Shown: positions 19,275 to 24,932 of the stretch, in pieces
How the letters are laid out: every line of letters starts with the position of its first letter
Numbering within the stretch: position 1 is the first letter of the stretch
NCBI GenBank assembly: GCA_052327205.1
Contig: CM126202.1
Span: 105,338,001 to 105,402,000 of the forward strand
Direction of reading: 5' to 3'
Origin: Somniosus microcephalus
Taxonomy: Eukaryota
DNA: 64,000 nucleotides
The notes under the pieces: generated by a model
The model's database searches: none
The model's input: only the letters and a program-made list of their open reading frames with translations
Told to the model about the DNA's origin: nothing
Translations under genes and position numbers: made by a program

Positions 19275-21073
19275 TATGGGAACCCACATGGGTCCTAGCT
19301 ATGCCTGCCTTTTCATGGGATATGTGGACAATTCATTGTTCCAGTCCTACTCCATTCCCCTCCCTCACCTCTTTCCGGTACATTGATGACTGTATCTGTG
19401 CCGTTTCCTGCTCTTGCCCTGAACTGGAAAATTTCATTCACTTTTTGCTTCTAATTTCCACCCTTCCTTCACCTTCACATGGTCCATTTCCGACTCTTCC
19501 CGTCCCTTCCTCGACTTCTCTGTCTCCATTTCTGGGGATAGGCTATCAACAAACATTCACTACAAGCCCACTGACTCCCACAGCTACCTGGACTACACTT
19601 CCTCCCACCCCACCTTATGTAAGGACTCTATTCCATCCTCCCAGTTTCTCCGTCTCCATCGCATCTGTTCTGATGATGCCACCTTCCATACTAGTGCTTC
19701 CGACATGTCTTCCTTTATCCTCAGCCGAGGATTCCCCTCTACCATGGTTGACGTGGCCCTCGACTGTGTCCGTTCTATTTCCCGCACTTCTGCTCTCACC
19801 CCTTCCTTTCCCTTCCCTCCCCTCCCAGAACCATGATAGGGTTCCCCTTGTCCTCACCTTTCACCCCACCAGCCTCCATATTCAACGTATAATTTTCCGC
19901 CACCTCAAGCATGATCCCACCACCAGACATATCTTCCCCTCACCTCCCCTTTCAGCATTCCAAAGGGACCATCCCCTCCATGACACCCTGGTCCACTCTT
20001 CAATCACCCCAAACACCCCCTCCCCTTCCCACGGCACCTTCCCGTGCAAGCGCAGGAGATGCAACACCTGCCCTTTTACCTCCTCCCTTCCCACTGTCCA
20101 TGGCCCCAAACACTCCTTCCAGGTGAAAGTGATTTACTTGTACAGGTAGACTATCCTTTATCCGAAAACCTTGGGACCAGCCGTGTTTCGGTTTTCGGAA
20201 AATTTCGGATTTCGGAAGGTATTTTATAAGACTAGGAAATTTGTCGGGGTGGGGGTCGGCTGGGGGTGGGGTTCGGCGGGGGGTCGGGGGTGGGGGTCGG
20301 CGGGGGTCGGGGTCGGCGGTGGGGGTCGGCGTCGTGCGTACGACTTACGCTGAACGAAAACACTTTCGGTTTTCAGAGGATTTCGGTTTTCGGAAGTGCG
20401 GATAAAGGATACACTATCCCTTATCCGAAAGGTTGGGGGGTCGGCGGGGGGTCAGGGAGAAAAGAATATCGGCCAGGCCGCTGCAGCTATCGGACGGGCC
20501 GCTGTATTGTTGGGTTCACTCTCCCGGTATACCTCCTTCACACTGCCTGGCTCGGCCTGCAATCCCCTACCCAGGAGGGAACTCAGTGACCCTCTGCCCT
20601 GCTCAGCGTAAGTCGTGCGCCACTCTGGTCATGTCGTGCGCACGACTTACGCTGAACGAAAAAACCTTCGTTTTTTAGAGGGTTTCGGTTTTCGGAAGTT
20701 CGGATAAAGGGTAGTCTACTTGTACTTGCAATTTAGTATACTGTATTCGCTGCTCACGATGCGGTCTCCTCTACATTGGGGGGACCAAATGCAGATTGGG
20801 TGACCGCTTTGCGGAACATCTCTGTTCAGTCCGTGACCTGTCCCTTTAATTCTCCGCTCCACTCCCACTCTGACCTTTCCGTCCTCGGGTTCTTGCACTG
20901 TTCGAACAAAGCTCAACGTAAGCTTGAGGAGCAGCATCTCATCTTTCGATTAGGCACTTTACAGCCTTCTGGACTCAACATTGAGTTCAACAGTTTCAGA
21001 CCATAACCTCTGCTCCTACTTTTTTTCACATGATTCTGCCATTCCCATTCACACCCCATCTAGACTCATCTTT
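19275..21073 (+). mobile_element. Penelope-like element (RT C-terminal part + GIY-YIG), decayed
   Basis: MGTHMGPSYACLFMGYV, FRYIDD, HYKPTDSHSYLDY, RVPLVLTFHP, GTFPCKRRRCNTCPF, LVYCIRCSRCGLLYIG.T, across frames. Confidence 0.9.
20143..20722. mobile_element. Tc1/mariner (Tigger/pogo-like) MITE inserted in the Penelope GIY-YIG region
   Basis: TIRs CAGGTAGACTATCCTTTATCCGAA and TTCGGATAAAGGGTAGTCTACTTG, with TA on both sides. Removing it rejoins FTCT..NLVYCIRC. Confidence 0.9.
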
Positions 21074-22438
21074 TCATAATCATAATCAACTTTATTGTCA
21101 TTGTTAGTGCACAAGTGCAGTACAACGAAATGTAGGCTTGCGGCTCCCGAGAGTGTACATTTAGATTAAGACATTTAACATTCGACATTCATTTGGCTTG
21201 TAATACATTAACATAAACATAACCATAATAAAGTGCATTGGCAGATGTGCAGGCTTTAGAGTTTATTTGTGGAGTTCAGTAGGATGACAGCCCTGGGAAA
21301 GAAGCTGTTCCTAAATCTGGTCGTTCAGGTGCGAATGCATCTGTAGCGTCTCCCAGATGGCAGGGGGGCGAACAGACTGTGGCTGGGGTGGGTAGGGTCT
21401 TTGATGGTCAGTGACCTCCGTAAACAGCGTTTCTGATAGATGTTCTCTATGGTCGGTAGCCGGGTGCCGGTAATGCGTTGGGCAGTTTTGACTACCCGCT
21501 GCAGGGCTTTCTGATCATAGGAGCTACAGCTGCCATACCATACTGTGATACAGTTCGTCAGGATGCTCTCTATTGTGCAGCGGTAAAAGTTAGAGAGGAT
21601 CAGGGGTGACAGGTTACATCCCTTCAGCCTCCTTAGGAAATATAGGCGCTGCTGGGCCGCCTTTACCAAAGAGGAGGTATTGAGGGGCCAGGAGAGGTCT
21701 TCCGTGATGTGGACTCCGAGGAACTTAAAGCTGTCCACCCTTTCCACCACAGCCCCATGGATGTGGATGGGGGTGTGACTTCTGCCTTTAGACTTCCTGA
21801 AGTCCACAATGATTTCCTTGGTTTTCTTGATGTTAAGGGCCAGGTTGTTATCGGCGCACCACTTCACGAGATGCTGGACCTCCTCCCTGTAGGCTGACTC
21901 GTCGTTGTTGGTGATCTGGCCTACTACCGTGGTATCATCTGCAAACTTGATGGTGCTGGAACCATGAACAGCCACACAGTCGTGGGTGAAGAGGGAGTAG
22001 AGGAGGGGGCTCAGCACACAACCTTGTGGGGGCCCCCGTGTTCAGGGTCGGGGCGGGGGGGGGGGGGGAGGTGTGGTTACCTAATTTGACAGACTGGGGT
22101 CTGTTAGTTAGGAAGTCCAGGGTCCAGTTGCAAAGGGAAGTGTTCAGGCCAAGAGTGTGGAGTTTGGTGGCCAGCTTGTTGGGGACGATAGTGTTGAATG
22201 CTGAGCTGTAGTCTATGAACAGCATTCTGATGTAGGTCTCTTTACCGTCTAAGTGATTCAATGCAGAATGTAGAGCAGTTGTGATTGCATCCTCCGTTGA
22301 TCTGTTTGCACGATAGGCAAACTGGTGTTGGTCAAGAGAGGCGGGAACACTGGCTTTGATGTGAGCCAGGACCAGTCTCTCTCAACACTTCATTATGATG
22401 GGTGTGAGTGCGACAGGTCGATATTCGTTCAGACACGT

Positions 22439-23479
22439 TGTAGGATTCGCAAAAATCCAGGAAAATACAGTCTACATTGTAAAACCCCTGAAATGGCCAC
22501 ATTTTATGAACACAAGATGGAGTTGGCAGATCACATGACTCATTTCAGAAGGACATACCACTGCAGTATCTTAAAGAAACCTGAATCGCCACCGATTAGA
22601 AGATTCCAGAACTGACTGTAATTGCTATGGAAAAATGGTTACAGTAGTAACAAAGTCAAAACAAAAGTATTTACACCTCAAGGTGTGTTAATTGCTAGCA
22701 AAACGCAAACCCATCTCTGAAATCACAGGGCACAGACAAAACCTATTATCTGTACCAAACTCAGAGGGACACAGGACAGATCCCATTAGTTTCATTTACA
22801 AGACATTAAAATAAAGTACCCGCTTTTGTCAAAGCAGCCTGCCCATTACTTTAACAAAAGAAAACCCCTAATTTGTCGCCAAGATGAGGGCAAGAAAACA
22901 GTATAACTGTTGGGGGAAAAGAGACATTAAAAAAAACACAGTTTCATACAGGAGCACCAAGGTCAAGGACAGTTTTAAAAACCCCGGTGAGCATAGAGGC
23001 CCAACTCCACCTAGCTGATCTAGTTGAGGTATACTGTAGAGACGGGAGGGTTTTTAATATTAAGGGCTTTGTAATTCGGGAGTGTTATTCATCCATCGTT
23101 GTGCCGTGCGCTTTCTCCACCCCCGTTTTATTATATCGCTGACCTAGAATTGATGTATTATGATAGTCAAAGTAACTCTTGTGTGTTAAATTTTAGTTCT
23201 CATTGAGAGGCGTGTTCATGATTTTTGTCTGCATTGTTTCTTCATTCTCTATGTTTTATTCTCCTTAAAAATAAAGATACCTTTGATTTAAAACTTACCT
23301 TGTCTCACCTGATCCATTTGTCTTCCGAGTCACAAGTTGGGCCAACACATCAAGGTGGTCTGGCAATAAGCCCAGTGTCTAGAACCGGTGAGGGGGAAGC
23401 GCTTCGGAACCGCTCACGAGCAGTGTGAAATCAAAAACCGATCTCGCACACCACAAGCTCGTTAAAACGACCCCTTACA
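22439..23479 (+). mobile_element. Single ~1040-bp LTR (TG...CA) of an ERV/LTR retrotransposon
   Basis: Non-Rex1 sequence splitting the Rex1 motif VPKQTA/TCLNEYRP. Starts TGTAGG, ends CTTACA, has AATAAA at 23270 and is followed by a PBS. Confidence 0.85.
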
Positions 23480-23482
23480 GAA

Positions 23483-23499
23483 TGGCGACCCAGATGGGA
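23483..23499 (+). promoter_or_regulatory. Primer-binding site complementary to the tRNA-Arg(CCG) 3' end
   Basis: TGGCGACCCAGATGGGA is the reverse complement of TCCCATCTGGGTCGCCA (vertebrate tRNA-Arg-CCG end, recalled from memory). Confidence 0.8.
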
Positions 23500-24932
23500 A
23501 TCAAAGGTATCTTTATTTTTAAGCAGTTTGCTTTGGCACAGGAATAATGGTAGCGGTCTTGAAGCATGTAGGGACTACTGCCTGGGCCAATGATAGATTG
23601 AAGATGGCGTTGAAGACATCAGCCAGCTGATCAGCACATTCTTTGAGTACCTGTCCAGGGATGCTATCGGGTCCAGCAGCCTTACGTGTGTTCACTCTGC
23701 GTAGAACACCCCTTACGTCGGAGGTCGACAGAGTGAGCACCTGGTCTTCGGGGGCAACAAGGCTTTGGTAGCCGGCTCCCTGTTGTCCCTGTCAAAGTGA
23801 GCGTAAAAGTTGTTAAGCTCCTCCGGAAGGGAGGCATCGCTAACCGGGGGGCTGGTGTTTTTGCCCTTGTAGTCAGTGATGGACTGGATGGCTTGCCACA
23901 TGCGCCGGGGGTCCGAGTTGTTGTGGAAATGATCCTCTATCCGCAGTGTCTGTTTCCTTTTGGCAGTCCTGATACCCTTTTTTAGGTTGGTCCTAGCTGC
24001 ACTGTAAGCCGCCGCGTCGCCAGATTTAAATGCTACGTCGCGTGCTTTTAACAGCGAGCGGACCTCCCCCGTTCATCCAGGGTTTCTGGTTGGGGTATGT
24101 CCTGATATATTTTTATGGGTCGTGACGACCTCAACGCAACTGTTGATGTAGAATAGCACTGTGGATACGTATTCCTCAATGTCAGTATGGGCAAACATGC
24201 TCCAATCAGTGCGTTCGAAGCAATCCTGAAGCTCCGAGACTGCCCCCTCTGGCCATACTTTCACTGATCTTACTGATGTTTTCACTCATTTGATGAACGG
24301 TTTGTATGCCGGGGCTAGAAACAGGGAGAGGTGGTCAGACTTCCCAAGGTGGGGGCAGGGAATGGCCTTATAAGCATCTACAATGCTCGTGTAGACTTGA
24401 TCCAGTGTGTTCTCCCCTCTTGTTGGGCAGGAAACATTCTGGTGGAATTTCGGGAGTACAGATTTTAGGTTTATGTGATTGAAGTCCCCCGCGACAATAA
24501 AAGCTCCGTCTGGGTGTGCAGTTTGTTGTTCGCTGATGACCCTGTAGAGGTCCTTCAGTGCTAGTTTGGCATTAGCGTGTGGTGGGATGTAGACCGCAGT
24601 GATGATAACAGCCGTGAATTCCCGGGGCAGGTAGAAGGGTCTGCACCTAACCATGAGGAATTCCAAATCGGCCGAACAGGATCTATCGATTATGTCCGTG
24701 TTAGTGCACCAGGCATTGTTCGTGTAAATGCACAAACCGCCTCCCTTGCTCTTACCGGAGTCTGCAGTTCTGTCGGCGCGGAAGACCGTGCGTCCTTCAA
24801 GCTGAATGGTGGTGTCAGGGATGCCGTTGTTCAACCAGGTCTCTGTGAAGATCATGGCGCAGCATTCCTTTGTCCTTTTCTGTGAGGAGAGATCAAGTTT
24901 GATCTCATCCATTTTATTTTCCAGTGACCGAA

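Follow-up and report, generated by a model that had tools for sequence, protein, structure and literature searches.

We find that a complete LTR in a 64,000-nucleotide stretch of the genome of the shark Somniosus microcephalus (contig CM126202.1, positions 105,338,001 to 105,402,000; hereafter the window) is probably a solo LTR left when a full-length DNA was integrated at one end only and later underwent LTR-LTR recombination. We give this reading a probability of about 0.65. Three features of one-ended integration are present at the locus: a flush left end, a right end that retains a spacer and 17 of 18 PBS nucleotides, and a junction with microhomology where the TSD is absent.

The LTR (22439-23479, + strand) is 1041 bp long, begins with TG at 22439 and ends with CA at 23478-23479. 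It is followed by a GAA spacer between LTR and PBS (23480-23482, + strand) and by 17 of the 18 PBS nucleotides, complementary to the tRNA-Arg(CCG) 3′ end (23483-23499, + strand). The spacer occurs in all 5′ LTRs and is missing from normal right ends; when family ends are compared, the CA of normal solo and 3′ LTRs directly abuts the TSD. An antisense patch (23499-23523, − strand) comes next, and is an exact 25-nt reverse complement of LTR positions 23264-23288 (+ strand), which span an AATAAA at 23270-23275. An earlier reading made from the letters alone (the sequence-only reading) had described this LTR, GAA, 17-nt PBS and perfect 25-nt fold-back, and the sequence confirms this. It had also taken the right end to be a reverse-transcription product that includes a tRNA copy, and this is supported.

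The family PBS is 18 nt in all 28 other copies listed, so the PBS in the window stops 1 nt early. It matches a tRNA-Arg(CCG) gene that we located in the genome. The tRNA-copied tail ends 16-17 nt into the tRNA, for which the tRNA-set limit is 18 nt (counted from the mature 3′ end, base 19 is the T-loop A). Base 23499 is common to the PBS and the antisense copy and the AG at 23522-23523 is common to the insert and the host LINE, and the patch thus consists of 22 new bases (23500-23521) with a 1-nt microhomology on one side and a 2-nt microhomology on the other. The antisense match lengthens to 28 nt if one mismatch is allowed. The template sequence is identical in 27 of 31 LTR matches. The pair of 25-mer and reverse complement gives two matches in the window and none in 100 shuffles of the window.

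The sequence-only reading had asked whether intact elements carry the antisense 25-mer after the PBS. The 28 copies listed (28/28) continue with internal sequence, and the junction is unique. Intact elements never show the antisense piece at this position, and therefore the insertion is not a plain deleted provirus. A search of the genome (6.4 Gb) for the LTR end, 17 PBS bases and a base other than C returned a single match, the window junction itself. Matches to the 18-nt PBS followed by a base other than A (six), or by A and then a base other than C (two listed of three), are point variants of normal 5′ LTRs.

The 5′ end of the LTR is flush, in the same register as 26 other copies (mismatches ~2-3%). 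The PPT-side GAC or AC that is present before 3′ LTRs is missing, and no target bases are lost at this end. A flush TG end without PPT-side bases is a signature of integrase, and the clean, integrase-type left end proposed from the letters holds. With one unit fewer of a variable repeat near 22946, the LTR falls ~135 bp short of most copies. The unit is ~130-135 bp and its copy number varies (LTR lengths are 1032-1489), in one case even between the two LTRs of a single element (1163 vs 1427 bp).

The target is a LINE on the − strand, which we take to be Rex1/Babar-like. Its RT and C-terminal part form the left flank (21325-22438; Pfam RVT_1 and PF09004); it resumes at 23522-24930, with the endonuclease part further right (Exo_endo_phos). 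Identity of the left flank to other copies is 95-97%. We considered that the flanks might come from two different LINE copies and saw no sign of this, with an identity of 94-96% on both sides. Uninterrupted copies read ACGT|CAC AGCCG at the insertion point, and 29 of 29 other copies (chosen by their left flank) have ACGT or a one-base variant of it, then CACAGCC. These copies read straight through, so in the window CAC is missing and AG belongs to both LINE and patch. The ACGT that closes the left flank is the expected 4-bp TSD and is not repeated on the right. Of the earlier claim that the LINE resumes at essentially the same point with no TSD, the absence of the TSD stands; the point of resumption is refined by the 3-bp target loss.

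Just beyond the patch, positions 23524-23526 combine LINE bases with LTR template bases, as could result from mismatch-tolerant annealing or a single later mutation. The A at 23525 is found in none of 53 scored LINE relatives; three copies genome-wide have it, but otherwise have hardly any rare allele in common with the window. The ACGT target agrees with the family's bias against a first T and a last A (59 sites, a weak test). Elsewhere in the window, positions 20140-20725 hold nested direct and inverted repeats (an 86-nt pair and 27-nt inverted arms) in an RT remnant that is presumably GIY-YIG/Penelope-like.

The family itself provides the background against which the junction can be read. 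We inspected 30 LTR ends (16 solo LTRs, 11 3′ LTRs and three left unassigned); the TSD is 4 bp, exact in 13 of the 16 solo LTRs and nearly so in three. The exact last 16 LTR bases have 1135 matches in the genome, and in 287 of them GAATGG follows. These counts imply that ~290 LTRs are 5′ or internal and ~845 form right ends, of which ~555 are solo, and from them we estimate that solo LTRs make up about two thirds of the family's insertions. A second PBS type is common in the family and looks like that of another tRNA-Arg isoacceptor, presumably TCG. Tandem elements that share a middle LTR, with PPT before it and PBS after it, account for at least four pairs among 100 matches listed; such loci lie at C5:24.57-24.58M, C1:215.31M, C1:367.86M, C2:261.42M and C8:202.87M.

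One natural copy of the parent element encodes a zinc knuckle, RT, a degenerate RT_RNaseH, a second RNase_H and rve, in this order, in a gag-pol that is broken by stops. A protease has no Pfam match in this copy. The copy also contains an 819-aa env-like ORF with an RQRR motif, which had no match in Pfam, PDB or a search with PF00523 (the last at reduced sensitivity) and an atlas match of 0.84 to an unnamed entry. The parent family shares with lokiretroviruses, as described in PMC7947760, a layout in which two LTRs enclose gag, RT, two RNase H domains (the first degenerate), integrase and an env-like ORF. The lokiretrovirus Env resembles paramyxovirus F, the Mononegavirales fusion glycoprotein, according to the same source; the searches above gave no such match for the env-like ORF of the parent family. 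Cartilaginous fishes are not among the hosts given in the abstract of PMC7947760, whereas the parent family sits in a shark genome. The dual RNase H and the env-like ORF suggest that the parent family is lokiretrovirus-like. In pairwise comparisons its RT scores best with foamy-virus RT (177 bits) and MLV RT (158-161), with Ty3 at 120.

Other right ends of the family show the same class of aberration. Two screens for non-internal sequence after GAATGG, each of which catches ~3/4 of random continuations, gave five and four matches. Shorter remnants were sought in three further screens (10, 21 and six matches), and siblings were judged by reading both flanks. Among these 37 short-remnant matches are six 5′ LTRs with a mutated PBS, 10 insertions with a normal TSD that starts GAA, three with a one-base TSD mismatch and one ambiguous case (all four left uncounted), seven that were not assigned and 10 loci (nine events) scored as aberrant. 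In all we count 12 aberrant right ends, including that of the window LTR, among ~845; the screen took exact-match LTR ends only, so this share of ~1-1.5% is a floor. The 11 siblings keep the spacer and 0-8 PBS bases, vs the 17-nt remnant of the window, by far the longest. Seven of the 12 are on two-LTR elements and five on solo LTRs, a solo share that is not above the ~555/845 of the family (n = 12, a small sample).

Five siblings have a re-copied LTR tip that ends in CA and a perfect 4-bp TSD (one with antisense U3, four with sense U5 or its last bases). The two-LTR element at C6:126.72M has GAA, eight PBS nucleotides and TACA, with the TSD GTAG. A second two-LTR element (C1:134.695M) has GAATG, an A and a 21-nt antisense copy of the U3 tip, with the TSD ACCA. 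Two further two-LTR elements, at C35:137.5M and C5:137.95M, have GAATG and GAAT, respectively, followed by a re-copied sense U5 tip (TSDs ATGT and CCTG); the C5:137.95M event is present also at C5:139.03M. The fifth case, at C12:21.27M, is on a solo LTR. The TSDs are flush with the re-copied tips, so the copying preceded the action of integrase, the one antisense case included.

The TSD is absent from seven of the 12 aberrant ends: that of the window LTR, three clear siblings and three weaker ones. A two-LTR element at C3:250.79M keeps GAA, with a TG microhomology, its TSD gone and its target flush; solo LTRs at C2:310.08M and C14:35.92M also have no TSD. Comparison with related repeats indicates that the target resumes flush after GAA, GAATG or GAAT at these three loci. 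The weaker siblings without a TSD are at C3:245.05M, C16:18.96M and C8:244.4M. Three of the 11 siblings are weak in that two are just two bases off the expected TSD and one has a putative 5′ partner.

Right ends that keep the spacer and PBS bases occur on two-LTR elements and hence are ends of full-length DNA. From the seven of 12 aberrant ends that are on such elements we infer that the DNA inserted at the window was also full length. In this course of events, the tRNA primer would have been removed too late, and the plus strand of the right end would have run through GAA and 17 tRNA bases. The 3′ end of this tail may then have acted as a primer, through a 1-nt homology, on plus-sense LTR sequence close to the poly(A) signal, with 22-25 nt copied. 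Integrase would have joined the U3 end alone, after ACGT. The right end, which has no terminal CA, would have been joined via the AG microhomology, with removal of the would-be TSD and CAC, and recombination between the two LTRs would later have taken out the interior. This last step leaves no mark, so we infer it from family statistics only.

The patch may date from before integration, as a product of RT, or from repair, as a product of a Pol theta-like host polymerase, and we consider the two about equally probable. The sibling at C1:134.695M favors RT: its antisense copying took place before integration, so RT was probably the copier there. The short length of the patch and its ending in microhomology favor host repair. 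The sequence-only reading had proposed snap-back synthesis and end joining; closure of the right end by an LTR-templated patch and microhomology is supported, and snap-back by a host polymerase is one option.

That same reading had the insertion as a captured, LTR-only strong-stop DNA. Plus-strand synthesis would have halted at strong-stop, the U3 end would have turned double-stranded and been joined by integrase or the free DNA captured at a break, and the PBS end would have folded back and been end-joined; the rest of the element would have been lost at once, with no later recombination. We now consider this origin doubtful. The same class of right end is carried by two-LTR elements, solo LTRs are only five of the 12 aberrant ends, and without a solo excess a separate LTR-only route is not called for (n = 12, small). 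If free DNA had been captured, a left end not made by integrase would be expected, and a flush TG without PPT-side bases is seen. To our knowledge, integrase does not act on strong-stop DNA that is free and single-stranded. We looked for a pre-formed fold-back of the strong-stop end toward the template and found none (z = 0.55), and the priming homology is only 1 nt. Long PBS remnants are also carried by whole HIV-1 proviruses described in PMC2797772. In favor of an LTR-only molecule, the element sequence ends 1 nt short of the tRNA-set strong-stop position, the inverted patch requires a single-stranded plus strand, and dead-end plus-strand strong-stop DNA builds up in Ty1 and Ty3 particles, as reported in PMC5371799. 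Two observations count against the full-length route: the 17 nt adjoins the strong-stop position (18 nt) and fits an LTR-only intermediate equally well, and the patch ends after 25 nt, whereas the copy at C1:134.695M runs to the U3 tip.

An ordinary solo LTR of a normal provirus is rejected, as the window has the spacer and PBS and no TSD. Nor does it seem at all probable that break-induced deletion with templated insertion later stripped a normal provirus of its interior, 3′ LTR and TSD, together with 3 bp of target. Break repair typically yields inverted, templated patches with short microhomology; a two-LTR element at C12:37.44M, which has an internal deletion and an 800-bp inversion with one inversion breakpoint inside the PBS, shows that breakpoints sited in the PBS exist. 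However, later deletion requires two breakpoints that each lie within a few bases of a landmark, with 10 kb between the two landmarks, for which a rough uniform estimate gives ~3e-7. An assembly artefact at a boundary between repeats is the least probable of the accounts. Positions 23501-23524 are uncovered by contigs of five public runs, but each run contains at most 0.57 of the region's words and is therefore uninformative here; the two LINE flanks are colinear, and many contigs carry sibling junctions of this class.

One-ended integration of full-length DNA has close parallels in cultured cells. The HIV-1 3′ junctions described in PMC2797772 have the unprocessed dinucleotide and two, four, 11 or 15 PBS nucleotides, with 1-4 nt of microhomology, an intact 5′ junction and repeats of 3, 2 or 0 bp; the MLV junctions are similar. 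Like the window, these HIV-1 and MLV junctions have a spacer and partial PBS after the 3′ LTR, extra bases, and a short or absent TSD (PMC2797772). The reported frequency of ~0.5-1.4% in repair-proficient cells is similar to the ~1% in the shark family (PMC2797772). Those cases are whole proviruses in cultured cells, whereas the shark insertion is a germline fossil and a solo LTR, and unlike in the HIV-1 and MLV cases as described in PMC2797772, its inserted bases can be traced, to the LTR in antisense.

PMC5041404 describes ASLV end mutants and INSTI-treated HIV-1 in which, as we propose for the window, integrase joins one end and host enzymes the other; the join can include additional viral sequence, in either orientation, and a deletion of target. 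The cause in PMC5041404 is experimental (engineered ends or a drug) and the most frequent outcome is a large host duplication, whereas the window loses just 3 bp. PBS insertions are also listed at HIV-1 2-LTR circle junctions, where an unremoved tRNA primer leaves PBS at the U5 end of the linear DNA (PMC5618025), although these are circles and not integrated. The dead-end strong-stop DNA of Ty1 and Ty3 has an LTR and a tRNA-copied run like that of the window, but consists of particle intermediates (PMC5371799). Integration of such a molecule is shown neither in PMC5371799, as far as its account of these intermediates goes, nor at the window.

The window junction type is thus already known from HIV-1, MLV and ASLV cell culture, and the natural germline example is new. 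We found no endogenous examples of window-type junctions in the open-access literature, and no paper there on template-jump end repair before integration in endogenous elements. A broader and rather unlikely possibility is that the RT of this family routinely rescues bad right ends by jumps from the tRNA tail to the LTR, that integrase inserts those with a restored CA tip in the normal way (as in the five germline cases with a perfect TSD), and that LTR-only strong-stop DNA without a CA can be fixed in the germline by one-ended integration. If this were true, solo-LTR-like insertions would arise without any provirus stage. The five siblings with a re-copied tip and a perfect TSD indicate that end repair by template jumping can precede integration. 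Solo LTRs that have no TSD need not stem from recombination between elements or from later deletion, and the shark genome preserves a natural germline series of aberrant junctions, which amounts to ~1% of one family's insertions.
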